Origin: Blasia pusilla
Lineage: Eukaryota
Direction: 5' to 3'
NCBI GenBank assembly: GCA_050084515.1
Contig: CM114271.1
Span: 34,596,001 to 34,660,000, forward strand
Length of the DNA: 64,000 nt
The position numbers and the translations under genes were made by a program. The notes under the pieces were generated by a model. The model did no database searches, was not told the DNA's origin, and was given only the letters and a program-made list of their open reading frames with translations. Of the stretch, positions 1-40,479 are shown piece after piece. Each line of letters begins with the position of its first letter. Position 1 is the first letter of the stretch.

Positions 1-3000
1 TATCATGGGTGCGCTTAAATCAGAAGGAGTTGAGGGCTGAATTATATCAAGGTGTAAAGGATGCCATGCATCAATAAGATGCGGATAGCCAAAGGCTTAG
101 GGAGACGCATTATATTACCTTCTTCTTTTACTGGAGGGCCACGTCATATGCATCAATTGTATCAAGATGCAATGGCAATTGTACGACATTTGGGGAAGCC
201 TGACTACTTCTTAACCATGACATGCAATCCAAAGTGCGAGGAGATTACATCAGCCCTATTATCTGGCCAATCACTGCAGACCGACTAGATTTGGTCGTGC
301 GGGTTTTTGAGAAGAAAAAGAAGGACTTGTTACGACTTATCATCAAGAAGGAGATATTGGGCTGAGTTGTAGGATGCATCCATGTGGTGGAATTCCAAAA
401 AAGAGGATTACCGCATATGCATGTCCTTATTATTTTAGGTCATGAGGATAAATCACGTACCATAATTGATTATGATCGTATCATTTTACTTGAAATCCCT
501 TATCAATCTACCCATCCAAGGTTATATTCTATCGTTGCTAATTGCATGGTTCACGGGCCATGTGGACCATTAAATCCAAATGCTCCGTGTATGGATAAGG
601 AAACAAAAAAACGTATAAAAGGCTATCCTAAAGCTTTTGCGGCCAACACTACCAAAACAAAAGTTGGTTATCCAATATATCGTAGGTAAGGATCATTTTA
701 TTTCTAAGGCATATGTATTCATGATTCCTTCCAATACCTTCATTCATGATTAATTACGATTATTATTGTGTTTTTGTAGATTGGAGAATGGAAGGGCGAT
801 AAGTAAGAGCAAACATTCATTGGATAATCATTTGGTTTTGCCTTACAATCCGATGTTATGCACCTTATTCGATTGTCACATTAATTTGGAGATTATAAGT
901 AGTGTTTCTGTTGTCAAGTACTTATACAAATATGTTTATAAAGGAGCTGATGTTGTGTCATTTAAGTTGTCAAAGGATATGGATACATCCAATGTAATTG
1001 AAGTTATTGACGAGACAACGTGATATCTTGATGCGATGTATGATTTTATGGATTGACTTCTATGATGCATTATACTTTATTTCTCAACTTCATGTGATTG
1101 TCCTTACTCAAATACTTGGAATTCTCATTATTCCAAATATATATCTTCTTGGGAGGCATGTTGGGATCTCTTTAAGTTTAGTCTACATGCCGAACTTCCA
1201 AGTATCGTTCGACTGGCAGTCCATCTTCCGACACAACAATTAGTCTACTTCAATGATGTTGACGCTCTTGGAGATATTTTGCAACTAAAAAGAGAGGCAA
1301 CATTGATCCAATGGTTTGCAACCAATCTATCTGACTCTAGTGCTCGACAATATCTATACATAGATTTTCTTGCTTATTATCGTTGAAGTAACAAGAGGTG
1401 GATTCGTAGGGTACAAAAACAAAATGGTTGTGGCCATCCCATTGGTCGCTTATACCTTACTCATCCAAGTAAATGCTCACAACTTCTTTGTATATAATTT
1501 CTTTTATATTCCACCTCTAAAGCGATGTATCTATATGTTGGGATAAACTCATTTAGTTTAATTCCTCGTAGGTGAAGGAGAACATCATTGGTTGAGATGA
1601 CTTCTCCATCATGTTCGAGGAGCAACTACGTATGAATGTTTGAGAACTGTTAATGGGTTATTATGTCCAACATTCAAGGAGGCTTCTATCCAATTGGGAC
1701 TTCTTGAGGATGATAGGGAAGTGTTCTCTTGCTTTGAAGAAGCTTCTACAATTTGTATAGGTTCTTCACTTTGTCGCCTATTTGTAATTATTCTAGCGTA
1801 CAACACATTTGCTCAATCTACAACACTTTGGAGTCAATTATTGGTTCCAATGGTAGAAGATCTCTTATATGAAGGGCGTCTAGTAAGAATTCATTAATAC
1901 CCTTGCATCATTTTTTTTATTCTTAATAGTATCTTCTATTGAGCATTCAACAATCTAACCAATTTTGGGTTATCATCCTATTTTGTAGAAAATTGGAATT
2001 CTGAATCTTCCCATTGAAGATGCTATGGTTAATACTGCATTGTTGGAAGTCCATTATTATTTACAAGATCAAGGACAAAGATTGTCTGACTTTCAAGACA
2101 TGCCCCAACTTGACTTCTAATGACTTCAATCAAATTCATATTTGGAGGAACAAGAGCTATTGTATGATACGAAAGAACTATTTGAGCAAGTGCAATTGGG
2201 AGAACCGTGTCTAAATGAAGGACAACGTATTATTTGGGATGCTATATATGATGAGCTTGATAAAATATGCTTGGATGCTCCACCATCTCCAAAAAAATTT
2301 CATCGATGGCCCAGGTGGAACGGGAAAAACTTTTTTATATAATCTTCTTCTTGCAAGTGTAAGGAATGCAAGAGGTATAGTTTTGGCTGTGGCGTCATCT
2401 GGAATAGTTGCTCTATTGTTAGACGGAGGACGTATTGCACATTCGCGATTCAAAATTCCCATCAATCTTCATGAGAGCTCTACTTGCAAATAAGTGCCAA
2501 TTCTGGTGATGCACAAATTTTCATTTCCTCCAATTTTGGTGGCACAAGTTATAGTTTACTCCCCTTTTCTTATTGTAGTTTATCGGTTAATAGTGACGGA
2601 GCGCGCTTAATCCGTGATGCAATGCTTATTATATGGGACGAAGCTCCTATGGCTTATCGTCACGCATTTGAGGCTGTAAATCAAACTTTACATGATATTA
2701 TGGGATTTGTTTATGATGAACACTGAAAATTACTATTTGGTGGAAAACTTATGGTATTTGGTGGTGATTTTCGTCAAGTGTTGCCTGTTGTTCGTCATGG
2801 AGATCGGCCGTAAATCATCCAAGCCACCATATAGAGGTCATGTCTTTGGTCTAATGTAATGGTCATGAAGTTTACTATAAGCATGTGAGTTCAAAGGTTG
2901 GAAGGTCACTTGCGTAGTGAACAACAAGCTTTTGCTGATTGGTTATTAGAAGTGGGAGAGGGTCGTGTACCTTTGCATCCACATTTGGGAGAAGACTTTA

Positions 3001-3940
3001 TACAATTACCATCTAAAATTATTACTAGAAGTAATAAGATATGTAATCTTATTGATTTGATGTATGGAAAATTTCCATCCGAATTCAATGACATTGATTT
3101 CTTGAGAGATACGGAAATTTTGACTCTGAGAAATAAAGATGTAGATGACATAAATGCAAGCGTAATGTCGCGGTTTCCAGGAGAGGTAATCCCTTTATCT
3201 TTTATAAAATAATTATTCAATTACAAGTTTGAATATTAATATTACCTTTTCTTACAAACTCATTATATTTTGTGTACAGGAGCAAGTTTACCTCAACGTT
3301 GACTCTATTCCAAATGAGGGGATGACCATATATATCCAACACAATTTTTGAACACATGCTTGCCTTCAAGACTTCCTCCGCATTGATTGTGTTTGAACAT
3401 TGGGGCACCAATTATGCTATTACGAAATATGAATGGAGCACATGGACAAGCAAACGGGACAATATTGGTGATTCATGGATTTATGCAATATTGCATAGAT
3501 GCTAAAATTATCAGAGGGAAGAATATTGGAGATCAAATTTTTGTTCCACGTATCCCATTGATTGCCTCAGATTCAGGTTTGCCATTTGATTTACGTAGGT
3601 TTCAATTTCCTATTCGACCGGCTTTTGCTATGACTATCAATAAGTCCCAAGGTCAAACATTGCAAAAGGTGGGCATTTACTTGCCTACTCCAATATTTTC
3701 TCATGGCTAATTGTATGTAGCATTATCTAGAGTGGGGAAGAGAATTTCTATCCATATTACAATTGGAAGCGATGAACATTCAAATAAGGAAGGTGACTAT
3801 ACACGGAATGTAGTATAAAAAGAAATATTTGGATAAAATAAATATTTAAAAATCATATCATAAAAATATGATTCCTTCTTGCCTATTTGCATCTTTCGTA
3901 TTCCCTCTTACACTGGTGCATTGCACAGGCACCTTACTAG
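1..3940 (+). mobile_element. Helitron, 3' part: degenerate RepHel (HUH Rep + PIF1-like helicase) with intact 3' terminus; 5' part lies outside the window
   Basis: Rep motifs SFTGGPRHM..YQDAMAIVR..GKPDYFLTMTCNP, VEFQKRGLPHMH (HUH) and YLYKYVYKG. Helicase motifs FIDGPGGTGKT, IWDEAPM and FAMTINKSQGQTL. Many stops and frameshifts. Ends in hairpin GTGCA-T-TGCAC followed by GGCACCTTACTAG|T (CTAG at 3937-3940). Confidence 0.93.
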
Positions 3941-6671: not shown

Positions 6672-9600
6672 ATGAGTAGCATCGGAACCGGGGTAATTGT
6701 CTCTGGATTTTGATGTGGTCGGACGTTTTAAGTGGAAGATCACGATTAGTTTCGTGGCGTTCAGTGCAACAATTGGTTCAAGTTTGTCCGTGCCACGATT
6801 GGAAGTGTGTGAGCTGTGGATGATATTTTTCTTGGCTGTAGCTTGCAAATGAGGCAGTTGATCTCTGTGTCCCACGGGCAAATTTCTTGCCTAATTTATC
6901 GGGCTGTTTCATTGACAGTATGATTTGTCGGTCACTACATTTTCTCCTGATGGACGCGTTTTCCAAATAGAGTATGCCACCAAGGCCATCGACAACAGCG
7001 GGTACGTTACATGAGTTTCGCACAACAATGGTAACTGCGCGGTCCTTTTTAAGGGGTCGTCGATACGCCATTCTATCTGGATTTGTTGCCCATGATTTGA
7101 GACCAGCCTGAATCCCTTTGCCTACCTGCTTCCCGGACGATCTATGATCCGTAATTTAGTGCAAATTGCTGCTGCTTCTTTCCAGAATTAGTCACGTGTT
7201 GAAATACGCAACTGACTAGTTACTCCTCCGGGTGGCGTGTCCAGAACGGTTGTGGGCATCAAGTGCAAGGATGGCATTGTCCTGGTGAGCTCCAATTGCC
7301 CTAATTTCGAAGGATGGAGTGCTTCATTTGGTGTTCCCACGTGCCAGGCGATTTAGCTGTTTTCTCATGTTTTGATTATCTTTTTACTTCGTGAGCTTCG
7401 AAGGGAAGAAATGTCAGTTGATTTTGCAGGCCAAACAGTACTTACATGCACATGAAAGTGTCGTGCCGTTTGTTATTTATTGGTCGTAATGCAATCCCGT
7501 TAATGGAGCAGGGAGTGGAGAAGCTTATTGCATCAAAGATGTTACTCGAAGGATCCAACAGGAGAATTCATTCCGTGAATCGCCATTCTGGCATGGTTAG
7601 TTACTTATTAGAAACCTCAAACGAATGACGATTGATGAATTTTACAGAAGTATGATGAGCACATTGAAAGTATTTCATTAACAAGACGGCTGCTACGCCT
7701 GTCACATGTTTTGTATTCCGGAGAGGGTTTCATATACCCTTTTGCAACAATCTTAGGAAACTCTTTTCAGCTGGTACTTCTTCATTTGATTGCACCTCAT
7801 GTTTTGCTCTCAAGGTTGCATATTTCTTTCAACGCTAATCTACTAGGTTTGCCCAACGAAAGAATTTAGTCACTGGCTGAAAATGGGTGACACTGCTCCT
7901 GTAACCTAATTTCCATGTATGCATCACTGTTCGGAAATCTTCCAGGCAATCGCTGGGTTGGCTGCTGATGGCCGGCAGATTGTAAGTCGAGCTAGAGCAG
8001 AAGCTGCAAATTACCTCAGGTTGGTGTTACTGGTTGCTCCTTTCTTTGATGGAACTTCTGTAAGTTTGCTCGTGTCCTTCAACCGAAAAGATAATTTTTG
8101 ACGTTAAAGACATAACAGTTGCAAAAGACCCGTTGGCTGCTTTTTTGTGATATCTCTATTCATGCTTTTATCTTCCCTTTCAAATTTCATAGCTCTATGA
8201 CTTTTGGTGCACCTACAAGAGAATGTAATAAAGGTATGGGGGACAGTTCTCATTCTTTCTTTGTTACTTGCAGCTTCTATGGTGAGGAGATTCCTACCAA
8301 AGAGTTGTGTGACAGAGTTGCCTACTATGTGCACTTGTGTACACTGTACTGGTGGCTCCGGTTGGTTTCCTCCCCTGGATCATTCTAGTCATAGCCATGC
8401 AAGAATTCTGACTTACTTTATGTGTCATTCGTCACCATATTACTCCAACACACAAGGCTGAGAGGGAGCCTTGGAGCGTGACACTAGAATATTGTCCACA
8501 GAAAGTCCTCTTTTTGATTCTCAAGGTGTTTTGCCAAGTAAGTTGGAGTTGTTGGTTGAGAGTTTTGGAATGAAGGAAACTGGTTACTGCAGTTGGACTC
8601 AGACTCCCTAGTCATTTACATGCAGGCCCTATGGTTCTGCAGCTATTTTGGGTGGTTATGACCGGGATGGTCCTCAATTGTATATGATCGAGCCTTCAGG
8701 TGTTGCATATGTAAGCCCTTCAACCTTTTTTCCTCTAATACTGCAGAGGAAGGTCAATAAACTGTGTTCAGTTGGTTGTGTCCATTCTTGTTGCTTCAAA
8801 ATCTTTTGGTTTCTAGCTGTTTTAATCTCCTTCCCCGTTTTAAAGATGATCTGAACACAGTAGTGAAATGATTGATTAGTATTCATTCTCATGAAGCCTT
8901 AAGTTTCAACTTTGTTGCCATCATGTCCAGCGTTACTTCGGTGCAGCAGTTGGCAAGGGAAGGCAAGCAGCTAAGACGTGAGTGTATCTTTTCTTTTCTT
9001 TTCTTTGGTTAAAAAAAGAGGATGCTTTGCTTGAAAGTTAAGCATGCAAATCACAGGGATATGTTGTACAAGGATTTTTTTTTAATAATTAGCTGTGGTT
9101 GTCACCAAACATAATTGTCTTGAAAAGTGGGAATATTTGTTCACAGGGAAATTGAGAAGCTGAAGCTGTCGGAGATGACATGCCGGGAAGGTGTCATTGC
9201 CGTTGCTAAGATGTAAGCGTGTATATTCTGTGCTTGATGTTGTGTTAGACAGTTGCTACTCTCAAGGAGTTGGTTTGTCTGCATTAAATTTATGCACACC
9301 ATATCACCGAGGACCTGCAAGTGCACAAAGTGATCCAAATTGTACTAATTTTGCAGAATATACAATGTACATGATGAAGCTAAGGATAAAGCTTTTGAGC
9401 TAGAAATGAGCTGGATATGTGATGAGTCAAAGCGAGAGCATCAACGGGTGACTGCTCCTCAACCTTTTTTGGATAGGTCCTTTCTGTGGGTAGTCTGTTC
9501 TCTTTGAGTGGAGGGAATACCATTTTCCACTCATTTGGAGTGGAAAGGAATGGCGAAGAAATGGTCATTATGGTTTGTGCCAAGAAGCTTCGTAAATGTT

Positions 9601-12198: not shown

Positions 12199-13650
12199 CA
12201 CTAATTGGTATGTGAAAAAAGGCCTGTAGCAATCCGTATTGGAGAAACTCAGCAAGGTGTGAATCTCCACGGAGATGGTAATCATTTTCCTGATTAAATC
12301 AGTGCGAGCCTTGTAGAAATCAGTGTCGGTTAAAATTGCAGCAAGCTGCGAATTTCCACAGATCTGAACAGTGCCTAAAAAATTCGTGGTTTCTTTCTCT
12401 ATTTTTCTGCTTGTTCATTTGCGGCTGTACGCATTTCAGTGGTTGGGGATGGGGGATGACAAGCTTTCCGTCCCCGGAACAGGCACTGTTGATGGTAGGA
12501 AATTGAGATCCAATTGGAAAATTGGAAGAGTGAGTCAGTCCCTGATCAGGTCAGTAGCCATAACCGCTACTTCTCAAGGTCATACACCTCTAAACCGATT
12601 GTCTCTCGGTTCTTGTGACGGAAAAGACTGATAAAGGGAACTGCTACCTGAGGACTTTATGAATACTCAGTATGTCCCACTGTTATCTCACAAATCTTTC
12701 ATGAGAATCGAGAACACCTTCCCTTGCATCTTTTCCTTTAATTCGGGGAGCCTAACGTATAAAGATTTGGGATGACGCAGCCGAAATCGCGATGCCGGAA
12801 ACGCAACGGGAGTGGTTGCTGTTCTTGCGGGCTCCTGATTCATTTTTCGCAAGAGATTCTTCTCTTCTTTCGTTTTCAACTGATTCGACTGATCTGCGGC
12901 CGTTTCTGGTCTTTCTTTCTTTCTGCTCCGTTGCACTCCCTTTCGCCTTCCCAACCGCCAGAGACCAGACATTTGTCTCTTCGGGCGCGTACTCTCTTTT
13001 TCGTCGTACCCTGCGACCGCTGTTTATCGACATCTGAGCCATAGATAAAGAATTCTCTGCACTCTCTCTGGACAAGAAGTCTCATTCATTCATTCTCTCT
13101 CCGCGTGGAGAGCCTAATTCTCGGGCATTGAGAGCATTTTCCGTTTCCCGCTCTCTCTCGGGGACGATCGCGACGAAGAGCAACACCTTTTCCGTGTCAG
13201 CTACAAGGACAACTCTACAAGGACTTTCCTTGATTTCCTCCTGGGTTCTGGCGTTAGTGTTCTCGATTTTATGTCAGTTGTGACTGTTAAATTCTTACAT
13301 CGGTCCGTAGTGCTAGGGCGGATGATCACCTGTAACGATTAGATTCGTGGGACTTCACCGACCTCCATGTGTGCGGCATGTTGTGTTCAGTTTGTCATGC
13401 TTTGTAAATCGAAGTGCCATGGCCCTCTCGGAACCTTGCTGGCAATCAAGCGCTTGGTGCAATTCTGATTCTCTCCGTGCGGAGGGAATCAGAATTGCAA
13501 TGCGATTATGTGAGGAAGGCCATTGCTCCTTTGCAGCACTCTCTCTCCGCGGAACATGTGGAATAAAAATGTGAGGACATAGCGTCATTTGCAGAAGTTG
13601 TCTGGAAAAACCAGACTCATAGTGCCGAATGATCGAGGCGTGGAGGGAAC

Positions 13651-16600
13651 ATGGGTTCGTCATTTGTGGACAAAAGTCTAAAAGCGAGCGCTTACAATGC
13701 GAGAACTGCGGACAGCACCTCGCCGGCACGAACATACTCTGTGAATAGCGCGTTCAAAAAAGGCTCCAATTCAGCAGCTTCAGGATCCTCTTCCAAGCAG
13801 GATCCTCAAGCTCGCACGTCAGCACTCTTCGATTCTAACACCGCTGGACCCACGAAAACAAATCCTCTCCAGACAGTTTCTCCCAAGAGGAGATTCTCTG
13901 GAAGCTTTGTGTCGCCTCCGAGGTCGTCTTCATTCTCCTTCTCCTCCTACCATCCTGCGGATGCTGTTGCCTCTCCAGGAACCACCGGTGCCTATGCGAG
14001 GGTCGGAAGCACCCACAGGACGACGAGTTACAACAGCGGAGGAGAGAGAGCATCAGCTGTGAGTCCAGGGCGAGCCAGAGTGTTACGAGCAAGCAGAAGA
14101 AAGTCAGCAGGGGAGGCTTCATTGGGGAATTTGAGTGCTACTGCTGCCGCTTCTTCTGCGGAAGCGAGATTTCAAGGGAGTCCTTATTTGGGAAAGGGTT
14201 CGTACGAAAGGACACCCTCTGCCGCGAGGAAGTCCTCGTTTGGCGCTTCTCTTCAAAACCTCTCCAAGACTCTCGCCGCTGCTGCTACTCCTCCTCATGC
14301 TGCTGCATTGAGTCCCTCACCTCTCGTTACCACTTTGGGTTCGCCGGTTGTAGACTTTTCAGATGCTGCTCTGGGAGTGAGCAATTCGCCTCTGCTGCAT
14401 TCGAATGATGGTGGTGGTGATGATGATGATGATGCGGATGATGATGATGTTTCGAGACTCAGCTCTTCACCCCTTGAGGCATACCCCGATCCAGGTGGGT
14501 CTCCCACGGATGTGTTCCACAGGACAGAGCAGGAGGAAGTTGCTGCAGAAAATCCAGGAAGGCAGGATCCCACGTCTCCACCTCCAACTGCAGCTGTAGG
14601 AGAAGCTGTCAGAAGTTCATTTCCTAGTTCATTTCCTGCGGGAGTAGCTCTGATGACGAATCCCCTGTATCCGGTTATATCTGGGATCTCATCTCCAATA
14701 TCGTCACCATCTCCACCTCCATCTGCTCCACACATCGATGGGTTCAACATTCCTGCGGTAGGAATCAACCTACCTAACGCAGCGAGCGATGCCTCTCCAG
14801 TCAGCAAAGTGGAAGAAATCAGCCCCACCACCGAGTCTCCGGCTGAGTTTCTCCAGAGAAGGAGAGCTGCAGCCGCGTTTCAACGCCAAAAAGGAGGTGG
14901 TGCCGATCGGACCTCTGCCGCAAGTCAAGCCATCATCAAACGGCGCTCGCAGGTCCAGATTCTCAGCCTTTTTCTTGGCCATCAGTCTGCCTGCCTTGAG
15001 GATCTCAAAGCTTGCAATACGCCCAAAATTACAACGTAGCATTTCTTAGATTTTGCTTTGGTGAAACAGCTCAGGCATAATCTCGTCAGTGATAATGATG
15101 CAAATGCTCATCGGTGACCAAGGGCTTTTTGGTTGCTCGAATTACCCTCAGACGGCTTTAAAACGAAAGCGAAGCAGCCCTCCAGATAATCTTTGGAACG
15201 ACGTGTTGCAGGTGCCAATCGTATAATTAAGAAGTAGATGAAACTTTCTCGTGAATCTGACGAAGAGGGAGGGTGCATGGATGGCGGCTAGGTGCTGAGC
15301 ACTGTGCAGAAGGCGAGAACTCGTCTATCGCTGCTCACCTACGAAGTTGCAAAGAAGAGGAGGAGTTTTGGAAGAGGTTGGATCGGCCGTTTCCGAAGAT
15401 GGATATATGAGAGAGAGCGAAAGAGATTGATGGGCAAGGTACATTCTCCTCATGTTCCTCTACCTATTTTGCTTTCCCGACCCCAATCAACCCCTTGACG
15501 ATCAGATCACCGGCGTTACGGGACTGCAAAGCCCTCCACTGAAAAGTCATGGAACTTCTTCGAGTTCGTGGTGCTCGATGAGTTTTTCGTCATTTCCCAT
15601 CTCCTGACCCCGAAGCCTTTCCTTGCAACGTAAGAATTTAAGATCACTCATAGTTCACACATCGGGTTTACCCCGATCCGGAGAAAGCTTCCTTCCTGGA
15701 TGTACTTACTCGTAGCACCTACTTACTTCCATCAAGGTCATCCTATTTTGTCAGTCTTAGACCAAGCTCAGACCCGTCAACGTTTATCGCGGTGCGTTCA
15801 TCATGGATCTCTGTCTTGGCTGGAATTTGAATAAAGCTTCTCCCCCAAACGGCCAAGATTATGAGAGTGCTCCTCACTAAATTGGAATGAGCTTGAGATT
15901 GCTAAACTCCAATCTTATCCACACCTCAACTGCGGCGATTGACAGTGATGCTTTATAACTCGCTCTTAGTAACAAACTAATGCGTGGATCTCTTCAGAAC
16001 AGACTGCCTGCATCTCCATTTCACCCGCGCAAATACTCTTCTATACCAATTTGGAGTGCTGAATGTAGTACATTCAGCACCGCAGTCTAAGTTGTCTCTT
16101 CAACCATTCTGCTTTCAATAACACGGCAATGTATGCATCAAAAGAGGCAATATTATAAACCGACTTCAGTATATCTTTATCTTCAGAACGCCTCGCCTAG
16201 TTAGATTAAGGATTCCCAGTGTGACGTGTATGACTGTCCTGTTGACATTTCATTGCACACTCACCCAGTTTTTTCCAGTCTATTTTTCAATGAACAGAGT
16301 GTGGTTTCGTATTCAGGGCACAGTTTGGCTCAGGCTATGGGTGCATTCACTGAAATCAATGGAGGTCAGCTATGGTTCAACCATGATGCTTGCTTTCTCG
16401 TTCATCCGCTGGGTGTTTCTGCTCAATGCAGTGCTTGCTGTCCTCTGGTTTGCTTTGATCATTCTTCCGTTCATGATAAACCCTCCTAGGACTTTCACTT
16501 GGAAGGTTTTCTGGCATCAGCTGGGAGACAAGAAAGAGGTCAAGGAGACGCTACAGGTACAAGTCTGTCATTCATTTTCAGACGTTGTGCGAGTCTTGTG

Positions 16601-19600
16601 TCGATAGTTGGTATTGGTGGGCAGGTGACGTACGTCTCGTCATCTGTTTTGTCTGAAAGAAGTTAGGTAGTGAACAGCTTTGTTTACTGGGGTTTTTATT
16701 TATATCAGATCATGAGAAATTACTGCATCATAATAGACATTATTGTCATGGATTCGTTCATTCATGCCAAATGAGGCGATATTTATAGCTATGGTCAATG
16801 ATGGGGTCAATCTCTGCGATGAGCAATCCAGTGATTTTGTGGATGTCGCCATAACTTGAATGCAGGGCAGTAATCTTGAGAAGACGTTTGTTTACTACGG
16901 TGGGTATACGTACACTCGTGCAGAACAACCCAACTCGTATAGAACGGACTACATGTATGCTGTCTGTATTGGTGCAACGTTTCTGATTAGTTTTCTTGGC
17001 GTTCTTGCCAGGTAATTCGTGTCCTGGGTCGTTCAAAGCTGCCTGAATATGTTTCGTGGATCTTAGATTCAACTCTTTTGTTAGGGGGAGGTGGCGTGAT
17101 GAAATTGTTCAGTTGTCATGATAACAATCTTTCTTTGCGGCCAGTCTCAGATAGAAGTCTCGTTGCACTTGGTTCAGGAATTAAATTAGTACCTTTTATA
17201 CGTTGTGGTTGGTTCGTGTTTGCACGAGGAATCTCAATTTCTTGTGGCTGTGGTTGTTGAGAAGGATCCCACTGACACTTCGGAGCATATGGGTGCAGGA
17301 TAGCTGGGATGATTATGAACAGTGGCGACATTGCCTTAGCAGCTCGCCTTTATCCATTCTCTTCTCTTGTGTTTGCATCTTGGGACTTCCACATCACTAG
17401 CATAGAGGTAAGATATCTCTCGATTTCATGGTTGATCTTGTGACTGGTTGACATACTTGGACAATTGTCGTAAAGTCATCTGGTAAGAAATTTGTTGTTT
17501 TTTTCTCTGTTGGTCGGCCAGATGCTGGTGAGAGAAATCAAATGACGACAAGAAGCGCGCTTGAACTAACGCAGGTCGCAGGGCTATTGAAACTCGAAAA
17601 CTAAGCTGCCCTCTCCATTAAACAGGAAGATATTTATGAAAAATGATCATATCTGTTGCTTCTTTTTTGGTGGATGGAACAGGCAGCCACCAAGTTACGA
17701 AGAGGAATCCGAATGCAGTTGAAGGAATTGCTGGCAGATGCTACAGTGAAGGAGAAGATATCTGTCCATAGAGATCGTCTAATATCAGCCAAGGTTGTTT
17801 CCTACAGCAAACTATTGGCTTGACGAGTGTCCCATTAGATCACAGTTGAGTTGCAAGAACTGCCCCGTGAGGTGCTTCCTTTTATGGTTTGGTACTGGCC
17901 TGATTGTGAATTTTCGTTTTCACGTCTTGTTTAGCTAGCTTTGTCCATATGGGTTTGATCATTGGCCAGGAAAGGGTTTTGTGGATCCACATCATGCCTC
18001 TGTTCTAGATGTTTCTGTAATTTTTGACACAAAGGTTCTGAGAAAAAACGGGTACAGAGAACGTGAGCTATGATAGTGAGGGTGTTTCCCATTGTTTAGA
18101 ACTGAAGAATTTTGATAAAACAATGAAAGATGATCATTATGAATGAATCTAAGATCTCAGAAATAAAGTGGTAGATTGTTTGTTCATCATTGCAGACTGC
18201 TTACCATTTTCTTTGTGGTTTTGTTTGGTAAGAAAGTGAATTAGGGAATAGTGCCCACACGAGTCCTGGACCTGGTCCTGATGTATCCAATGAAGCTCAT
18301 TTAGAGCAGCAGACTCACTCCTGGATGGGTCTGAAAATGACTCAGAGATTTTCAGTACTTTTTATTCTCTGGCCATGCGCGATGGCGGGAACTGTCACTG
18401 CAGTTGTTTTTCTTGTTACCAAGGCTGAGGAAGTCAATCAAAAACTTGGTGAGTGGCTCTCTTTCATGTGACTTTGCTTAGAATTCTGCAAGCTTTTGAC
18501 CAAACAGTTTTTAAAAGCACGAATTTATGGCTCCAAACTTGTCCCTCTGTGTAGTCAGCTTTGAATTTCTTCTATCCATCATCAGTTCTTACTCTTTCTC
18601 ATGCCAAGCAGTTTTCAAACTGCTAATTTATGGCTCCCAACTTGGCCCTTTCTGTGGCCATCTTTGGTTCTTATATCCATCATCAGTTGTTACCTCTCTC
18701 ATCCGCAGTAGATTTTTCTGAGGAAGCTTTCTACAATCGCTGCGTATAGACTTTTCTTGGTGTCACCGAGTCAGGAACTTGAGCAGCCCCTCTACTTCTT
18801 CACAACAAAAATCTACTAGAGCATTCAGATTCGACTGTTGAGTAGGTATGATGAGTGGGAATTTATGCAACAGGAAGCAAGTATGCACAGGCAGCGCTTT
18901 TATCAATATTGAACATTTTCATGCCGGTGATTGCCCGAGTTCTTGTCGAGTGGGAGGACTTCAAACCCGCCACTGCTGAACGTGTTGTACTATTGAAGTT
19001 GTTTTGCCTGCGCCTTCTCAATCTTGGTACTCTATTTTACAGGTTGTGCCTTGATTCTGAACTATGTGAGACGCCAGTTTGCTCGTTGGGGCTTGACAAG
19101 ATTAACTCTTGCTTTAGATAGCATGACTGTATTTACCTTACACACATTGGGCATCTGAGTGTGCAATAGATCTCGAGTGCAGCATGCCACCTAGGTTTAT
19201 TTGTCGGTCTTAAATGGTGAAATGTTTTCATCGGATCATTCCATTTCAGAAATTGTCCATTAGGGCACTGACGTGGGATGCTTTGGGCATTCCTCTGCAG
19301 ATTATTTATGATGCTCATCCATACTCTTCAGCTGCGAGAGAATGAGGTCGCAGTGGAGTCCTGCTTGGCTGAAAACAGATGTGAAGAGGGCTTCACTTGT
19401 TGTACACATGCAAATATGACCCAGTGGAATATTTGTACAGACAGAGATGTAAGTAGGACTTCTGGACATTTTCCTTACCATTATGCTTTTAAATCCTTGC
19501 CGGAATTGTTGTGGTACGAGGACAAGCAGTGGAAGTATCCACTCTAAATTGGACAGAGTGCCAGACGATTGCTGCTCTCTTACACTAGCGATTCTTAGCC

Positions 19601-21723
19601 AACCTCTAGCTTTAGTCATGCTTGCAGTAAAGAATGGACAAGTTAAAATGATGAGCATTTCCCTCAATACTTGCAGACTCACTCTAGGAGCAATTTCAAA
19701 ACTTTGGGTTAGAATTGTGCAGATAAATCTGTGTTTGCCAGCCTGCATGGAGAATGTCGTGGGAACTCAACTGCTGCGTCTAATCTTCGTGACCACTCTT
19801 ATTAACAACGCATATGAACTCATTTATGGTTTCGGCTATGTTTGGGCAACTTCTGGGGTCTATTTCCTGACCCATCTCTCTTTCGAAGATTTTTCTTCCT
19901 GTTGTGAAACTGGAATTGTGGTTCGATTTGGATTGTATCTCCCTCGTATTTTACTGTCTCGTTTCGTAAGAGGAAGGCCCAATATGCATACCCCAGAAGC
20001 TCATAATCAGATCACACGCAAGCTCCCTTTCAATGGTCCATCACTGAACTTTTCCTCGCGCCTGCTCCAAGTAGATTTCAAATCTATAGTGGCTTTGAAC
20101 TGCAGAATCGACGACAGTTGTACATAGAGGACATGGCGATTGATATCGTGTATGTCCAAGCTCTCGTGTGGGTGGGTTCATGCTTCAGTCCTATGGCTTC
20201 AATTTTGGGATTCTTCTCCAATCTTATTACGTGGTACTGCATGAGGGTGAGTGTCTCCACACCTCCAAAGCTCTGATTTTCCATGTCGGGAATCGTTGAC
20301 ATAACAAATTCTAATGGGTGGCGTCCACACATCTGCTTTCGTTGATGTGCTACTTGAAATGGAAAGACGTGCTGAATTCTGCAAGCCAATAATGATGAGC
20401 TCGAACTAGTAACGATGTGGTTGAGGTTCTACAAGTACAATTCTGATCCACAAGCTCCGTCTATTCGTGCTGTGTCCTCTGTCCTTTCTTTGTATAAGAA
20501 GTTGAGTGGATATCACATGCTCTGCTTCTTGACTCTGCTATATTCAGTTTGCACTTTTCAGGACGTGTGCACCAGTGGAAAAAGTTCATAGTGCGTCACG
20601 TACATCCACCCTCACATATGGGCTACTACTTCTCACTCTCATACTTGCGACGATTCCCGCAACAATTAACGTGATGCAAAGAAGTAGCGGATTTTGTGGG
20701 CCTATCCATGAGCGCATCTCAATGTATGATGTAGTCAGGAGATATATTCAGGTCAGTGCCAACCTGCACATGCAGCACGCGTACTCATATTATTATACCA
20801 GTGCATTGGTCTCATGGGCAGGGTTGTAGGACCAAAACCAGATTCTGCAATGCCATATGAAGTGAATAGGTGGAGTTCTCATGAAGTTTCACTTATCTAA
20901 CAAGAGTGTAAATAGCAGAGATCCATTTGCCTCTTGGGATTCTAGAAACCTGTTCTCAAGTTTCTTTGCTCTGTTCTGATCTTTTGTGCACTGCAGAAAG
21001 CACCGTCAGGCTTATGGGTGACTATCAGCTGGCTGACAAACCCGGCGGTACTGCTAGGAGTCATTCTGCTTCTCATATTTGGTGTGGTTCTGCTGCAATC
21101 AAAGTTGATTCAATCTCGACATTTCCTGACGCTCACGAAACACGAGATGGGCATGCAACGGAGAGAAGCTACAGAAAAGCTTTTGCGAGTCAGACAGGTA
21201 TTGTATTTCAAACTGGACTCTCCACATGCTATAGCCCAGTGCCAAGGTCCCAGCAGTTTCTACCGAATCAGGAACACAAGAGTGCTCATCTTCCATCTCC
21301 GGCCAAAGTCCAACACATTTCATTTAGTGCGCTGTGTTCTTTGTGCAGACCATCAATCAGGGTGCGCCGATCAACAGAACATCGGCAGCTGCTCTGCCAG
21401 AATTATCCACTAGTCCTCCTAAAGGCTCCAGAGCATCGCAGGAGGGTTCTACCTCGACTTACATTTCTGGTCAATTGGAAGCAGTTAAAATCTCTACCGA
21501 GACATCTACTAATAGAGACGGCATTGAAGCTAGTAAAAGAAGAGAGAGCATTGGGACTCACACCGAGAGAGACAGAATTGAAGCCACCAGACGAGAGCAC
21601 CTTATTTTCAGTGAAAAAGAGAGGGAGAGAGAAAGCATTGAAACGGCGAGGAGGGAAAGCATCGGATCCATGAGAATTGAGCCCACTAGGAAAGACAGCA
21701 TTGAATACACCAAGAGGAAGTAG
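13651..21723 (+). CDS. TMC: Transmembrane channel-like (TMC) family protein, 14 exons, ~1176 aa, with long Ser/Pro-rich N-terminus
   Basis: Exons 13651-14952, 15292-15438, 16317-16556, 16866-17011, 17299-17407, 17683-17793, 18346-18448, 18874-19042, 19301-19448, 19723-19857, 20106-20246, 20548-20751, 20997-21197 and 21349-21723 join in consistent phase (3531 nt). TMC hallmarks in order: LWVHSLKSMEVSYGS..FSFIRWVFLLN, LEKTFVYYGGY, FSSLVFASWDFHI, CMENVVGTQLLRL (CWET-like), IVYVQALVWVGSCFSP, SSGFCGP. About 10 hydrophobic segments. Confidence 0.88.
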
Positions 21724-21769
21724 AGTTGGTGTAGTGTCAAAGATCGAGTGCCTAGGTCATCTACATAAT

Positions 21770-23080
21770 CCGCAGAGGATACTTCTCATCGTCTTCGATT
21801 TGACGATCAAATGTGCATGTCCACCGAGCGTTCCTTTTTTGAGTGAGATCTTATGCTTTGCAATCTCAAAATCCCTGTGGGATCTGACCGAGACTTCGAT
21901 GATGGTCATGCCTGACTCATCTCGGTCCTCTCGATCTTTGTCCCAGCCATCGTTCCACCCATCACAAGTTTGCTCGTTCCGCTCGTGCTTGTCCTTTTTC
22001 GCCTTTGCATTGTCGGACCAGGTTTGATGGACGTTTTTGTGTGACGTTTTTTCATCAGTTCATTTTCCCCTTGAGGCAAGACCCGGAGCACTCTCCCAGT
22101 CTTCCCTCTCTCATCCAGGCAACGAGGCGCAGAAGGTCGAGCCCGAGAGTCCTCCCTCGTCCTTCTCTTTTGCTTCCTCAGCAGAAGAGCCTCTCGAGAG
22201 GCAGAGGACCAAGACGACGCTCGACTCATGGGGGGGAGTCCAGATCGTCCGTGTCGGGGCTGTGGGGGAGACTCTGGGGCTCCAGCAGCACCAGAGATTC
22301 GAGGTCCTCCTCGATCTCGGTGCCGGGGGCTGGTGGCGATGCAATCGCAGCATCGGATTCGGAGTCCGGGACCGCAAACGACACCCTCGAGCGAGCTCCC
22401 ATCGCACTGATCTGGAGCTCCGAGGGAGGGCGCTCAACAGGAGCTGCAGAATCCACCGTTACCTCGGCCACCACATCTCCTGCCGGGGCTTCGTCGCGGA
22501 CACCATCAATCTCGATCCCGGGCTCCTCGCCCGCGGACTCTTCCATCACTGCGCGCACATCCATCTCCTCGGCCGGAAGACCGGCTCTCGGGCGCACTCC
22601 ATCGTCCGCGACCACAGCTCCTCCCACATTTGGCAGGAGCGCATCCTCCCTTTCCCCAGCAGCCGCGCTCGCTACTCGATCCGCACCAGTGGCTGGAGGA
22701 TTGTCAAATTTGTGGAAGAAACTTGCGGGGAAATTACGATCAAAGAGGAAGTTGAGGAGAGTCGAACGCCGCACGAGCCGCTCTCCGTCGACATCGCGAT
22801 CTGCGAGCCCAATGGTGGCCACCAACGGAGGAAGTGACTGGTTGTCACGATCTGGGCAGGCTTTTCACTGGAAAAGAGCCCCGTCGGTGCGTGAGGGCAG
22901 GAGCAAGGACAGCGCAGGCGCAGCGTATACTCTAGAAGAAGGGTCGAGTGCATAGGAGAGATGAGGGTTGTCATACTTTTTGAGACCTCGAGAAGTTCGG
23001 TAGTCTTTGCGCATGGGTCGCGGTGTCTCTATCCAGGGCTGTTTTCTCCGATACCGTCTTTGGTTGTGCCCTGTCACCAA
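21770..23080 (-). pseudogene. Possible degenerate minus-strand ORF of unknown family, convergent with TMC
   Basis: Minus ORFs 22865-23080 and 22226-22825 are in the same frame and separated by one TGA. After a shift at the C-run near 22230 a charged reading continues with stops (EEAKEKDEGG...NAKAKKDKHERNEQTCDGWNDGWDKDREDRDES). The strand is not certain. Confidence 0.35.
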
Positions 23081-23976
23081 GTCACTGCTCTTCTCTCATA
23101 GCTGTATCGCTTTCTCTCCGAATTGGTCGATTGCAGTGTCTGTGTTTTGTTATAATGCGATGTCTACAATCCTTGCGCATGTCCCTCGAAAGACACTTCG
23201 AGGGACATGCGCAAGGATTGTCTGATGTCTTTTCATATGGGTAAGCGCTACGCTACAATGATAAGATCCTCCCTCGGACACACCGACGCATGGCCCCCGG
23301 AGAGTTGCGTTCTTATGTCATCGTATCGACGTCCACCACATCCCGGACCTCCGCAAATTGAAGTGCGCATGCGAGAGGCTTGTTCTGACGGATTTCAGGC
23401 AGCGATGGTGAGCTGATTCAACCCCATGGCCACCTCCCATCGGATATTATCCACCAGGCACGATCTCGACGGGGCCTCCAAGTGTTCAACACCTCTGTTT
23501 CTTGAGGCTTCACTCTTTCGATCGTTGAAATCTACCGCACACATAGAGACTTTTTGCTGAGCGAAGCTGTCAGCTCTGTTGGTGTGAACCGTACGTCTGA
23601 AGACATACGAATCGACCGCGATCGTTGTAATTGTAATTGCAATCGAAACCTACCGCAAATATAGAGACATTTTGCTGATCGAAGCCGTGAGCACAGTGTT
23701 GTCATACATCCCTCAGAGTGGGTTTCGAGATACACTACAAACCATCACTGGATCTCAAAACTGAATCATACTCTCCCACCTTACCTCGATCCGGACGATT
23801 TTTGGGTCATTCTCGATGTTCGTCTTGAAGCCATTCGAGTTTGATGATCGGGGAAGGGGTCGCTCACTACTAGCGCACGCTACGATCGTTGTCTAGCTAC
23901 TCCTAAAGATTGAGTCATCAACAACACATCCACTCGATCCAAGCAAATCTTGGTTATTCTCTATGTTCGTATGGTA

Positions 23977-27914: not shown

Positions 27915-29363
27915 AATATATGGTCAAACTGGCCAACAAGTCACAAATCTAAATGTGTGGCATAAGATAATTAGACATGTATCTTCAAAGATTACAGAGT
28001 CTTTCATCATTAATATAGTAATAGGACTTCCTAAATTAGCGAATCCTGCTACGTTAGAAGTATGTTTTGCTTGCCAATTTGGAAAACAAACTAGATTTCC
28101 TTTTCCAAAGCAAGATAGAAGAACATTCAAGATATTGGAGTTGATTCACAATGATGTGTGGACAACATCACAACATAGCCTTAGTGATTTCCAGTACTTT
28201 GTTTCATTTATTGATGATTTCTCTAGATATATATGGGTATACTTTTTGAAAGCCAAGTCAGAGGTATTCACAATATTCCAAACATTCAGAGTTCTAGTAG
28301 AGAAGTAGACTGGAGAACACATTCTGAAATTACGTTGTGATGGAGGAGGAGAGTATCTTTCAACAGAGGTTGATGACTACTTACGTCAGAATGACATCCA
28401 ACATCAAGTGACTTGCCGTCACACTCCATAACAAAATGGACTGGATGAGAGGAAGAATCGACATATTTGTAAGGCGACACGAGCTATGCTAAATGAGAAG
28501 AATATGCCTAAGGTGTATTGGGCAAAGGTTGTAGCGTGTGCAGTCTTCTTAATTAATCAAACTCCAATAGCAGAAGTTCATGATAAGATTCCATTCAAAG
28601 TCTTGACAAGAAGTAAATCTGATTTTTCCTTCCTCAAAGTATTTGGTTATATTTGTTATGCTCATGTTCCTTCTGAAAGACGTCAGAAATTAGACTCCGA
28701 ATCTGAAAGATGTATATTCATTGGCTACGCTGATGGAACTAAGGATTATAAGTGCTACATTCCATCCTCTAGGCAACTTATTATTAGTCACGATGTTGTC
28801 TTTGATGAGCTAAAGTCATGATATGCTCCATCTAAGCCTATTCCACCTCTAAACTCGTCTGTTGAAGGGGAGAATATGATTGTAAACCAACCGACATTAC
28901 CTTCAAATTCCCCAAGTACTAGTGCAGGATTAGGAGGGGTCCTAGATTCATCAGTTAAATCTATGAGTCCATGGACGGGAAGAGTGCGTATTTAGTCTAT
29001 TGATACTAGTCAGAGCTTGAGTCAGGTGTTAGAGGCATCTACCTCTGAACAACAATTTTGTAGATCAAGTAGAGTCATACATCATGTTCATAGATTCATA
29101 AATGAAGGTTTCTTGCGACACATCATGCATATATGATGACTATCCTTCAAGAACAAGAGCCAAGTTGTTTTGAAGAAGATGCAAATAGTGTCGATTGGAT
29201 TGAAGCTATGGAGGAAGAGCTTGCTGCATTAAGACATCAACAAACTTGGGAGCTGGTTGATATACCTTCCAATAAGGAAACTATTGGTTGCAAATGGGTT
29301 TACAAAATCAAGCGCAATCAAGATGATATAATTAATAGATACAAAGCAAGATTGGTGGCTAAG

Positions 29364-30365
29364 TGTCGCGACCCTCATGACCAAACAAGTGCCAAGCGGA
29401 ACATCAGAATATTAGCGGGCTCACGCTAAGATGGTTTGCGCGTTGGAGTTGTCTCAAAGAGGAGACAAGAGACGAGACGCGAGCGAGAAGTCGCGTTTCA
29501 GATGTGATGGTCGCGACTCAGAAACCTGGACCAAACGCAGAATGAGACTTGAAAGAAGTCGAGTCTAGGAAGTGGGTTGCCAAAGGGAAGATCCGGATTT
29601 GGAACGCCACTAGCGTTTGAGAGTTTCCGACTGTATTTATGGCCATAACTTTTAGCGTCAAGATGCGTTTGGAGCAAATAAGGGTGCGTTGGAAAGCTTA
29701 TGGAGAGCCGGTCCAAATGCACCAAAGATCGCCGCAAACGCATAAGCAGCGGCCGAGATACAACCCAAAAACGACTGTAAGTGGAGTCTGGTTGAGGGCC
29801 ACAATGAAGGGCCCGACCCTCTTTTCCCAAAGGGAAGGGGTTATTGGAGAACCCCAAAAGTACTAGTAAGGGGGAAGGTCTCCGAGAGTGCTTGGAACCC
29901 AAACCCCACTTTGGGCGCCGCGGGGCGGCTCAAGGGCATGGAACGGAACGCGAGTTTGGGCGTTGGGTTGGAAAACCTGCCCCAAGTCCAGTGAGGCGAA
30001 TTTAGACATCCCTCTTGGATTCCACCCCGCGACTTAATTACTTGGGTCTCGGTTCAGAACTCACCCGAGGACCGTTGAACAGTTGGGATCGCTAGGCGCG
30101 CAAGTGCCGTTTCAAATCCTTGGACTAACCAGAAAGTCTGTTCCAAGTCTTGAAGGACTTGCCATGTGTTGGGAGCTAGGAACTAAGGAAGGTTGAACTT
30201 GATGAGACGCCGAGTTGAGGACTCGGTGGGTTGGAACGCCGGTTGGCCAAAACCGACTAACGAGAGTGCGTGTTTGGGTGCAGATCGGCGATGAGTTCGT
30301 GACCTACTGAACGCACGCTTCCGCAACACTAAAGATTGACGTTCAAGGAGAGTAGGGGCGCGACA
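29364..30365. mobile_element. Solo LTR (1002 bp) inserted in the Copia RT
   Basis: TGTCGCG...CGCGACA termini and 5-bp TSD CTAAG (29359-29363, 30366-30370). Removing it restores [22 protein letters not shown]. Confidence 0.9.
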
Positions 30366-33300
30366 CTAAGGGCTATGCACAACAATATGGCATCGATTAT
30401 GAGGAAACATTTAGCCTTGTTGCAAAGATGGCGACTACAAGAACAGTGGTTGCAGTTGCAGTAAGTAAGAAGTGGAGATTACATCACGTGGATGTTAAGA
30501 ATGCTTTCTTAAATGGAGATCTATAAGAGGAAGTATATATGACTCAACCACATGGATACGAGCATCCTGAGTTTCGCGCATGCAGGTTGAAGAAAGCTCT
30601 ATACGGGCTCAAACAAGCTCCAAGAGCCTGGTATGGCAAAATTACATACGTCCTACAAGAGTTGGGTTTTAGGATATGTGATTACTCCTCATTATATGTC
30701 TTGAGAGGACAAGATCACACGGTTATTATTATGTTGTATGTCGACGACCTCCTGATTAGTGGGAGTATTGAGGATATGATACAACAAGTCAAGCTAAAAT
30801 TACACGCAAAATTTGATATGAAGGACTTGGGAGAACTCAAGTACTTCCTTGGTGTTGAATTCATCAAGCTTGGAGAGAGTATGTGGTTACTACAACGACA
30901 ATATGCTCTTCACATACATTCAAAATTTAGTATGACGGCTTGTAAGCCAATCTCTACACCATTGGACGAGAGTGTGAAGCTAAGAGTGGATGAAAGAGAG
31001 TTGCTTACAGATTCTAATATGTACACGCGCATGGTTGGAAATTTGATCAATTTGACTATGACCAGGCCAAATTTGAGCTATGCAGTTGCCCTAGTGAGCC
31101 AATTTATGCAAGCACCTTGAAAACCTCACCTTCATGTTATGAAGAGGATTATCCGGTATGTGAAATTCTTTGTTCAGTTTGGGCTTCAATTTGAATCTTC
31201 TCCGAGTTTACAGTTACAGAAATTCAAAGATGCTGATTGAGCAGGAAGTGTGTTTGATCGAGACTCCACATTCGGTTATTCATTTACTTTGGGAAGCGCA
31301 ACTATAAGTTGGGCTTCAAAGAAGCAACCTACAGTTGCTTCATCTTCAACAGAGGTTGAGTACAGAGGAGCAAGCAATGCAGCATGTGAGGCGGTGTGGC
31401 TTCATCGATTACTTGTTGAAATTAGTTTTAATAACTTAGGACCTAGTATAATATATGCAGAGAATATTAGTAGCATCAAGCTTGCTAATAACCATGTGTT
31501 TCATGCTCATACAAAGCATGTTGAGATGCACTATCACTTTATCAGAGAGAAAGTGTTTGCAGAAGAAATTGATCTTGTGTATATAGGTACAGATCAGCAA
31601 ATTGCCTACGTCTTCACAAAGGTATTGTCTAGAAGATAAGTTTGAGATTTTTAGAAGTGATTTAGGCGTTAGAAGAGATATCGATATGAGCTTGAGATGG
31701 GATATTGAAGATTGAGTTACAGTCAAGCTCATTAGACACCTAAACTGCTATATTTGGTATTCATACGGAGTAGGGAAGCTTAATCTTGGCTAGTCAGTTA
31801 AGGGCGATTATCTCAACTAGGATTAGTTAATCACAGATAGTCTAACTCGAGACTATGGTTAAGATTAGGGTTAGGGTTGCTTGTACATACCCTATATAAT
31901 TGAGAAGAGGACCAACCTCCACTCATTCTCTCATTGCAAAATTTCGTTCTCCATGGTGGTGGTGTGAGTGTGAGAGCCGTTTCCCACCAATTATGCTTTT
32001 GTAGCAGTTTTCTACAGGTATAACTTATGGTCTAGTCATATGACTCCTTGACCTTATAATAATTTTTTAATTATGATTTATTGAGTCACTAATTAGTGAC
32101 TTAGTGAGTCATTATCGACACTTTAATCTAGACAGATCATGACTCTTTTTACTTTAATGTTGTGACTTGCTGACTTAAGTTGTGTGACTGGTACAATCAT
32201 GAATTCATTCACAGAACGACTTAGGCTTTTTTCATTTGTGACTCAAAATCAATAATATGGAATATTTCTGATTTTATTGAGATTGGAGTGATAATTTGAT
32301 GACATTGGAGATCCTCGTTGACTGCCATACAAATTCTACTCATACATTATCAATGAATGAAACAAAGAAAGAAAAGTTAAAAGAACCCAAGTATGTTCAA
32401 TGTTTCAATATTTTCTTACAAGGGACGTGCGAGCTATACCATCTAGGTAATAATTGTAGATTGCAATACAATAGAACTTCCAAAAGTACATACCTATTTC
32501 TAAACAAAGGAATAGATTTAAAGCCACATGGTCCATGCATTTATAATGAAACCAAACCAAAAGATATATGGAAACCACTATCCAAGACTTATTTAAAAAA
32601 AAACATATTTAGAAGGTAATCACTTCTTTTGAAGTTATAAACTTGGTAGTATATAATCCAATAGGAAATATTGATAGAGCAGAGACTTTTATCAATCTAC
32701 CCATTTCTTAAGGTTGATTTCATACCAAAGTACCAAGGACTGGCAAGGAGCTAACTATGTCATCTAAAACATATTGGCATGGCTCATCGTGTTCATTAGC
32801 TTCTTGAACTCTGACTCCAAAAGTGTTCTCAAGTGAACACGAACTACACCACATGGGATCTCCTTCCCATGGAATAGATCCTTACTTGCCAAGCCTCTAA
32901 CTACTCCATAGATGATCATATGGCGAGTATTTCGTGGCTCGCTAAAGGAGATGTGATCACCAATTTGCAATTGAAATCAATGAGAATAAAAACACAAACA
33001 TTAGCTCATCTTGAATAAGACGGAAACATGGTGCATAAAAAATTCCAATAATATACACTCACTAGTAATATCATAGTATCTTTTTGTAAGACCATCCTTT
33101 AATGGAAGCATTCAAGTAAACTTAAAAATCCCCACGTTAGAAAATGGCAACAAAACCTACTATCAATGTCACATATATCATAAGCGACTAAAATTAAAGG
33201 AGTTTTGAAATTAGTCTTTTCTTGTTTCTCATACTAGTAGACTTTGGTTCACTCTCGTTTCTATCACTCGTATCAACCTGCGCATTGCTGATCTTCAATA

Positions 33301-39594: not shown

Positions 39595-40479
39595 TGTACA
39601 CTTGTATTACACATGTGATCTCTAATCTCAATGACTCTTGCTATGCTATTGTTGATTTAGTTGAAGGTGATGTCCCTACTATGTGCTTCTTTTCGAAACT
39701 GGTTTTGATATTATTCGGGTGGGAGATGATACGTGACTTCTTGATCAGCAAACACACATGAAACAAGATTTTTAAATTTTGGTTAAAAAAACGTTAACTT
39801 TTTTGACAGACTGATGGGTTATTTCCCTAGCAGAGGTTGAATCCTAGTTGATTCTACGTGAGAAATAATGTTACCATCCACTTCTTAGTTCTATTTTGAA
39901 AGCTCAAGGGACGTTTCTTCCGCTCCTTTGAGATGAGAAAACGTCCCCATCTTTCATGTGGCCCCCCCCCCATACGATCCATTTGGTGCTCCACTATTAC
40001 AACCACCTTTAATGTTTTTCCGTCGTTTTATTTCTAGTTCCCTCTTTCTCCATGTGCACTACCGTTTCAAGCGCCTTTCTCCATGTGCACTACTGTCCCA
40101 GCTTCATGATCGAATCGGGGATGTATACTCGGTCAAGCCCCGACCGAAGACCTTCGGTTCAGGTGGGCAAAGCGCAAGATCACGGGCACCGAGAGCTCTA
40201 CTCGAGGGAAGAGAGTGAGAGAGGTAGCCGTTGCAGAACCTCACGATACCTGTACGCTCCTGACATCAACTCAATCCCTCCAGCTCTCCATGTACTTAAA
40301 GGAGCAGAATCTTCGAAGTAGAGACTTACATCCGAGGTCGGAAGCGGAGTCCCGGTTCGTACGCGCTGCTTGCCGTTCCTCTTTCTCGCGGGAGTGGGAA
40401 AATCTCGTGCGGATTGAGCGCGCGGATTCTACAGCGGTAAGACAGCAGGGCTCGGGGAGTCGAGACATAGTATTTGGCA

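Follow-up and report, generated by a model that had tools for sequence, protein, structure and literature searches.

Proteins of the transmembrane channel-like (TMC) family are known above all for forming the hearing channel's pore, and some animal TMCs outside hair cells behave as scramblases or as channels of internal membranes. Here we describe a TMC gene at positions 13651-21723, on the + strand, of a 64,000-nucleotide (nt) stretch of the genome of the liverwort Blasia pusilla (assembly GCA_050084515.1, contig CM114271.1, 34,596,001 to 34,660,000), referred to below as the window. In the sections available to us, the work of Erives and Fritzsch (2019-2020; PMC7003098) describes single-copy Tmc genes in Coccomyxa, Klebsormidium, Marchantia polymorpha, Physcomitrella and Selaginella, and among fungi only in Rozella and Blastocladiomycota. 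It proposes that Tmc was lost as cell walls grew rigid or lignified, with the ferns grouped with the seed plants. The accessible text of a 2022 paper on OSCA evolution (PMC12806904) reports TMC in Selaginella and Coccomyxa, places OSCA/TMEM63, TMEM16 and TMC in one Pfam clan, and states that the large cytosolic insert between helices 2 and 3 of OSCA is absent from TMC. Scramblase activity of TMC1/2 is reported in the available part of a preprint (PMC12236488), and a role of mouse TMC7 in acrosome formation in that of a further study (PMC11398861). According to similarly partial sources, animal TMC7 and TMC5 have been reported in sperm development, which is a parallel and not evidence for the plant gene.

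A literature search for a functional study of any plant TMC found none, and nothing was found on Mp8g02240, the M. polymorpha gene, or on transmembrane channel-like proteins in combination with spermatozoids. The original prediction for this locus, made from the DNA sequence alone, had regarded the homologs of non-seed plants as essentially uncharacterised. This holds for function, for which the search returned no study, but not for the presence of the gene, which is in print in the available sections of PMC7003098 and PMC12806904. No other paper returned by the search mentions a plant TMC. The presence of TMC in plants is already published, and the gene in the window is one more liverwort ortholog. 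Absent from the available text of these two papers are the two fern copies, the seven-cysteine loop of the green lineage and the frame-breaking splicing of two introns, all of which are described below.

Rebuilding the gene from the raw sequence reproduced exactly the 14 in-phase GT-AG exons and the approximately 1176 residues that had been predicted. The joined frame contains no internal stop and encodes 1176 amino acids (aa), and GT..AG is present at all 13 introns. An in-frame stop lies at 13630-13632, and the next ATG is the one at 13651; the first residues of the product align with the start of the Marchantia protein. Exon 1 encodes a long N-terminal region in which several blocks are conserved with Marchantia. 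An in-frame TAG (15289-15291) directly abuts exon 2, and the coding exon therefore cannot begin earlier in frame. A search with exon 3 returned one relative, M. polymorpha Mp_8g02240 (P0001; 1415 aa; annotated as a 'TMC domain-containing protein'), which is 68% identical over the exon. In a tblastn comparison with the window this protein is colinear exon by exon, with 779 of 1305 aligned residues identical (60%), rising to 478 of 618 (77%) over exons 2-13. The TMC locus was the only one found by this comparison in the 64-kb window, besides a chance-level match at 9164-9301 (E 0.26).

Family membership was assessed by scanning 11 stop-to-stop pieces of the locus against Pfam at E ≤ 1. The piece at 20007-20276 matches PF07810 (TMC; E 3.8e-7, 31.1 bits, cut-off 25), and the remaining 10 of the 11 pieces match no family at this threshold. 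While the window itself was tested as open reading frame (ORF) pieces, the whole-protein Pfam test was run on the ortholog Mp_8g02240, in which PF07810 is the sole family at E ≤ 1 (38.4 bits; the match spans positions 1-111 of the 111 in the profile). No match to OSCA/TMEM63 (RSN1_7TM) or TMEM16/anoctamin (PF04547) was found at E ≤ 1, in the window pieces or in Mp_8g02240. The spliced protein of the window aligns to a TMC profile of 68 non-green rows with 444.4 bits, as a single match over positions 46-706 of 715, while 20 shuffles of the same protein score ≤ 0 bits. It also retains 20 of the 20 near-invariant family positions (at least 90% conserved in the family alignment). The motif CMENVVGTQ keeps the C, the E and the V-G of the alignment consensus CWETxVGQ, with W replaced by M and T by N; C-x-E-N is common to all land-plant rows of the alignment.

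The fold was predicted on a stand-in, the 1027-aa ortholog from M. paleacea (P0002), with an alignment of 86 rows (of 134). Over the structured core this protein and the window protein are identical at 486 of 630 residues (77%). The core of the stand-in, at approximately 325-955, has a predicted local distance difference test (pLDDT) score of mostly 70-97; its first 300 residues and the C-terminal 65 are of low confidence and probably disordered, with pLDDT of about 30-37 in the part matching exon 1. The long N-terminal region is thus predicted to be probably disordered. In a sequence search of the PDB, the only significant matches of the stand-in were TMC-1 (7usw, 4.1e-21) and TMC-2 (8tkp, 1.8e-20), and no OSCA or TMEM16 entry was matched at E ≤ 1. 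Foldseek against the PDB ranked C. elegans TMC-2 and TMC-1 first (E 8.6e-16 to 4.2e-15, TM score 0.63), ahead of the best TMEM16 (4.3e-5, TM score 0.30), TMEM63B (4.7e-4) and OSCA3.1 (5.8e-3). With VIA-align, four TMC-1/2 entries gave Z scores of 33.6-34.4 (root-mean-square deviation 3.0-3.6 Å over 414-461 residues), compared with 24.1 for TMEM63B, 22.3 for TMEM16F and 22.1 for OSCA3.1. On this 77%-identical stand-in, the predicted model shows a ten-helix TMEM16-type fold.

The C. elegans TMC-1 and TMC-2 structures (7usw/7usx/7usy and 8tkp) accordingly belong to the same family and share the ten-helix fold with the stand-in (Z of about 34, 20-22% identity). Unlike the C. elegans and vertebrate TMCs, the protein of the window has a seven-cysteine loop of about 48 residues, a long and probably disordered N-terminus, and the variant motif. 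With OSCA/TMEM63 and TMEM16/anoctamin the stand-in shares the superfamily fold, but with a weaker structural match than to TMC and no match at the sequence level. That an OSCA/TMEM63 or anoctamin gene has been misread as TMC could draw on this shared fold only (Z 20-24). It has next to no probability, given that TMC-1/2 lead by 10 Z units and by 10 orders of E-value in Foldseek, and that neither Pfam nor the PDB sequence search returned OSCA or anoctamin at E ≤ 1. The alternative is rejected by the very tests that were proposed with the original prediction, including the Foldseek comparison with TMC-1 structures; Pfam, sequence search and fold all uphold its assignment to TMC rather than to OSCA or anoctamin. 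The gene is a genuine member of the TMC family.

To describe the distribution of the family, 1.84 billion representatives were scanned by HMMER with a six-row plant profile, giving 1432 matches at E ≤ 1e-3, 756 at ≤ 1e-10 and 188 at ≤ 1e-30. Twenty of the best 22 new matches were looked up, and 12 of these carry an organism name. Ten of the 12 are from the green lineage (Sphagnum fallax, Diphasiastrum complanatum, three from Adiantum, Coleochaete scutata, Selaginella moellendorffii, Mesostigma viride, Myrmecia bisecta and Coccomyxa subellipsoidea) and two are from holozoan protists (Pigoraptor and Salpingoeca). No seed plant is present among these 12 named top matches of the 20 looked up, in line with the predicted absence of TMC from flowering plants. 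Word-based homolog searches (six and three proteins, each from 8000 scored candidates) were saturated and carry little weight on distribution; they added M. paleacea, Riccia fluitans, Calypogeia fissa, two genes of Ceratopteris richardii and Adiantum nelumboides.

In a quick maximum-likelihood tree of 31 rows, supported by the Shimodaira-Hasegawa-like approximate likelihood ratio test (SH-aLRT) only, the gene of the window is sister to Riccia and the two Marchantia species (99), followed by Calypogeia and then Sphagnum, on a short branch (0.14). The liverwort and Sphagnum TMCs lie inside a green clade (99) that otherwise matches the species tree. The position within the liverworts and the species-tree-like gene tree indicate vertical inheritance, and the gene in the window is therefore the vertically inherited liverwort ortholog of Mp_8g02240. 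The proteins of M. polymorpha, M. paleacea, Riccia fluitans and Calypogeia fissa share with it the conserved N-terminal blocks, the seven-cysteine loop and its place in the tree. The ferns carry two well-separated TMC paralog clades with a support of 100 each (P0005, P0006, P0007, P0012 and P0162, from Ceratopteris and Adiantum).

The loop that precedes the motif helix distinguishes the green-lineage rows. In 17 of 18 of them it comprises 46-58 residues with seven or eight cysteines, the exception being Mesostigma (28 residues, one cysteine); in the window it comprises about 48 residues with seven cysteines. The 68 non-green rows have a median loop of 19 residues with one to four cysteines, save one row with 11 cysteines, which is sister to the green-lineage rows in the tree. 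By the topology of the family, the seven-cysteine loop should face the outside or the lumen. A 361-aa protein (P0018) is also a streptophyte-type TMC with the cysteine loop, about equally distant (41-45%) from Coleochaete, a lycophyte and the liverworts; its source is probably a plant or algal group absent among the named matches.

RNA over 13400-23100 was available from two contig runs (X1 and X3, from two studies and guessed to be RNA) and from two stranded raw-read runs under the same species label (X8 and X9). Splice joints were listed only when seen in at least 3 reads or in a contig, and the depth was low (approximately 1-10). First mates lie nearly all on the - strand across 13400-21800, which for most stranded libraries implies RNA derived from the + strand. 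The predicted introns were matched exactly by RNA in 11 of 13 cases, with combined X8 and X9 counts of 3 to 39 that rise toward the 3' end. At intron 1, all listed records join 14952 to 15212 (one contig each in X1 and X3, one read each in X8 and X9). The predicted donor is kept, the predicted acceptor at 15292 is used by no listed record, and a TAA follows in frame four codons on, the translation ending in KRRSQVPIV. For intron 6, the acceptor in the listed records is 18233, reached from the donor 17793 (an X3 contig and three X9 reads sharing one start) or from the donor 17844 (three X9 reads, three starts). Either joint disrupts the frame, and no listed record uses the predicted acceptor at 18346. 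A messenger RNA with the 15212 and 18233 acceptors contains ORFs of only 438, 208 and 498 aa. The splice model of the original prediction is thus borne out by transcripts at 11 introns and at the short 3' end, but not at the acceptors of introns 1 and 6, for which the RNA shows 15212 and 18233.

Several introns are covered nearly as well as the exons, indicating that much of the RNA is unspliced precursor. Given this coverage, the low depth and the listing threshold, rarer productive joints could exist unseen. Comparison with the orthologs was consistent with use of the predicted joints: none of 11 orthologs with residues at the exon 1-exon 2 junction has an insertion there, and at the exon 6-exon 7 junction 12 of 13 lack one, among them a Coleochaete ORF derived from a transcriptome, with three additional residues in Coccomyxa. 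Marchantia has the same residues at the junctions. Together with the TAG immediately before 15292, these features speak for selection acting on the productive joints. For the frame-breaking joints, the candidate explanations are that unproductive splicing is regulated, that precursor RNA was sampled, and that the gene is in early decay. A micro-exon (15212-15220 followed by a 71-nt intron, with a similar arrangement at 18233) was considered and rejected for the records seen, as the contig and reads continue unspliced for at least 60 nt past the acceptors.

Two forms of the C-terminus were compared. The M. polymorpha protein has a 450-residue tail past the last helix, which aligns to 22059-22955 (E 7.5e-4 and 0.013) and thereby suggests a model of 15 exons and 1395 aa. 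The ORF at 21903-22955 spans 350 codons without a stop, its first methionine coming only close to the end, and neither it nor its antisense ORF matches a Pfam family. The X3 contig joins 21197 to 21349 and then continues unspliced, and the X9 sense depth, at 18.6 over 21500-21823, drops to 0.57 and finally to 0. No joint from 21483 to 22059 is listed in the RNA, and the X8 sense depth over the candidate exon 15 is 1.4-3.9. The M. paleacea and Riccia proteins are annotated with a read-through (short) tail and the M. polymorpha protein with a long one. The short tail of the window resembles those of M. paleacea and Riccia at both ends (18 of 500 and 0 of 500 shuffles reach the score), and it extends 79 aa after QLEA, compared with 34 aa in those two species; its greater length suggests a local expansion. 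The short C-terminal form is the supported one. The long form, suggested by homology and low X8 sense coverage, is hypothetical. Repeated R-x-x-S/I-I-E/G-like units were observed at 21484-21720, within the short tail.

Taking these results together, we favour, with somewhat better than even confidence, the reading that 13651-21723 is a vertically inherited, genomically intact TMC ortholog of Mp_8g02240, which would use an animal-like channel mechanism. Channel or mechanosensory activity may be expected by analogy with animal TMCs. Two copies would pair, each with its own conduction path along the groove of helices 4-7, and this path may pass cations and possibly lipids. Regulators would bind the long N-terminal region and the cytoplasmic helices that precede the first membrane helix. 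Full-length coding transcripts appear to be a minority in the RNA at hand, introns 1 and 6 being joined mostly to the frame-breaking upstream acceptors, and productive splicing may be confined to a tissue or stage outside the sampled RNA. Several points weigh against this reading. All listed records at introns 1 and 6 break the frame, leaving the three short ORFs; joints under 3 reads may be hidden, yet no productive one is shown. The acceptors at 15292 and 18346 lie in purine-rich, weak-looking contexts. The motif CMENVVGTQ departs from the consensus, and the fold and whole-protein Pfam tests were done on orthologs of the window's spliced protein.

It is possible, although unlikely, that the gene encodes a real TMC whose main activity is lipid scrambling or conduction in internal membranes (endoplasmic reticulum or Golgi) rather than force-gated conduction at the cell surface. 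The fold is common with the TMEM16 scramblases (Z of about 22 for the stand-in), and the available texts on TMC1/2 scrambling (PMC12236488) and on mouse TMC7 in acrosome formation (PMC11398861) point the same way. Nothing in the analysis counts against such a role, and the cysteine-rich loop would fit a lumen as well as the outside. We regard it as improbable that the gene is transcribed but no longer yields a full-length TMC, being in early decay or giving truncated products only. The frame-breaking records at introns 1 and 6 speak for this, as does the stronger appearance of the observed acceptors compared with the productive ones, 18233 being preceded by a pyrimidine-rich tract. The X9 sense depth also climbs from about 3 to about 9.5 near 18260 (18260-18583), and the 498-aa ORF, which begins at an ATG at 18325, corresponds to the C-terminal half; the rise could mark an internal start upstream of this ORF or simply 3' bias. 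However, no stop or frameshift is present across 3.5 kb of exons, and the conservation relative to Marchantia over exons 2-13, the complete set of family positions and the short branch all argue against decay, while the low depth, the precursor RNA and the unlisted joints under 3 reads lessen the force of the splicing records.

The positions of the exons and other features of the window are collected in the table below. The neighbouring features, in its last five rows, were called by Pfam on ORF pieces.

Table. Features of the TMC locus and its surroundings in the 64,000-nt window of Blasia pusilla. Identities are residues identical to Mp_8g02240; read counts are X8 + X9.
Feature	Position	Strand	Remarks
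Exon 1	13651..14952	+	434 codons; 180/434 identical; RNA contigs span 13566-14948
Exon 2	15292..15438	+	Acceptor demanded by homology; 36/49 identical
Exon 2 extension, 80 nt	15212..15291	+	From the RNA-observed acceptor 15212; TAA 15224-15226 in the frame of exon 1
Exon 3	16317..16556	+	First predicted membrane helix; 55/80 identical; both flanking joints in RNA
Exon 4	16866..17011	+	37/48 identical; RNA-backed
Exon 5	17299..17407	+	30/37 identical; RNA-backed
Exon 6	17683..17793	+	26/37 identical; alternative donor 17844 in RNA, reading through stop 17821-17823
Exon 7	18346..18448	+	Acceptor demanded by homology; 21/34 identical
Exon 7 extension, 113 nt	18233..18345	+	From the RNA-observed acceptor 18233; frame shifted, stops brought in
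Exon 8	18874..19042	+	40/56 identical; upstream joint 6+14 reads
Exon 9	19301..19448	+	39/50 identical; RNA-backed
Seven-cysteine loop, before the C-M-E-N motif	19335-19448 (exon 9) and 19723-19755 (exon 10)	+	
Exon 10	19723..19857	+	CMENVVGTQ motif and start of Pfam TMC domain; 39/45 identical; RNA-backed
Exon 11	20106..20246	+	Core of Pfam TMC domain; 40/47 identical; RNA-backed
Exon 12	20548..20751	+	57/68 identical; RNA-backed
Exon 13	20997..21197	+	Last membrane helix and following cytoplasmic helix; 58/67 identical; joints 15+24 reads upstream, 12+20 downstream
Exon 14, short form	21349..21723	+	Stop 21721-21723; part past 21483 is read-through of a possible donor
Candidate exon 15, long form (hypothetical)	22059..22955	+	Homology; donor after 21483 (GTTAAA); product 1395 aa
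Helitron/Pif1-like fragments	366-3707		
Broken Ty1/copia element	27916-31117		Gag-pre-integrase, SH3-like, RVT_2
Bet v 1 family gene	40471-41189		Two pieces
PNGase A gene	56292-58211		One 640-codon ORF
BTB domain	63632-64000		At the end of the window

A further exon within 18453-18750 was considered and rejected, as this stretch has no counterpart in the orthologs and is skipped by the 18448-18874 joint seen in the RNA; no tandem repeat was found in this region. In exon 1, a trinucleotide repeat (14405-14449, period 3, 15 copies) encodes an aspartate run, and reads appear to be cut there. Differences of A to G were observed at 14092, 19504 (intron 9), 22020 and 22377 in nearly all covering reads or contigs (11 of 12 X9 reads at 14092), and are most simply strain differences. 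RNA of the - strand was present at 21176-23100 (first mate on +), over the 3' end of the gene and downstream of it, with depths of 1.3-7.7 (X8) and at most 5.2 (X9), indicating that an antisense or convergent transcript overlaps the last exons.

We put forward, tentatively and as rather doubtful, the idea that the green TMC serves as a channel in swimming cells that have no wall (sperm and zoospores) and was lost together with swimming sperm in the seed plants. The seven-cysteine outer loop would then sense or tether, and full-length protein would be made only in the male germ line, through productive splicing of introns 1 and 6. The finding of TMC in liverworts, a moss, lycophytes, ferns, Coleochaete and Mesostigma fits this pattern, and with it the possible tie to flagellated sperm raised in the original prediction. 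Coccomyxa has no known flagellate stage, and as a carrier of TMC it would be an exception. Rozella and Blastocladiomycota make flagellated zoospores, and the fungal distribution of Tmc also fits. Since ferns combine lignified walls, swimming sperm and two TMC copies, the swimming-cell idea fits better than one based on the cell wall; the two fern paralogs sit poorly with the published idea of wall-related loss in which the ferns are included, as given in the available sections of PMC7003098.

If true, the swimming-cell reading would replace the published loss of Tmc with rigid, lignified walls. A single tractable plant copy, with an ortholog in the easily edited Marchantia, could reveal the ancestral role of TMC in early eukaryotes, and could also show why the seed plants lost the gene.

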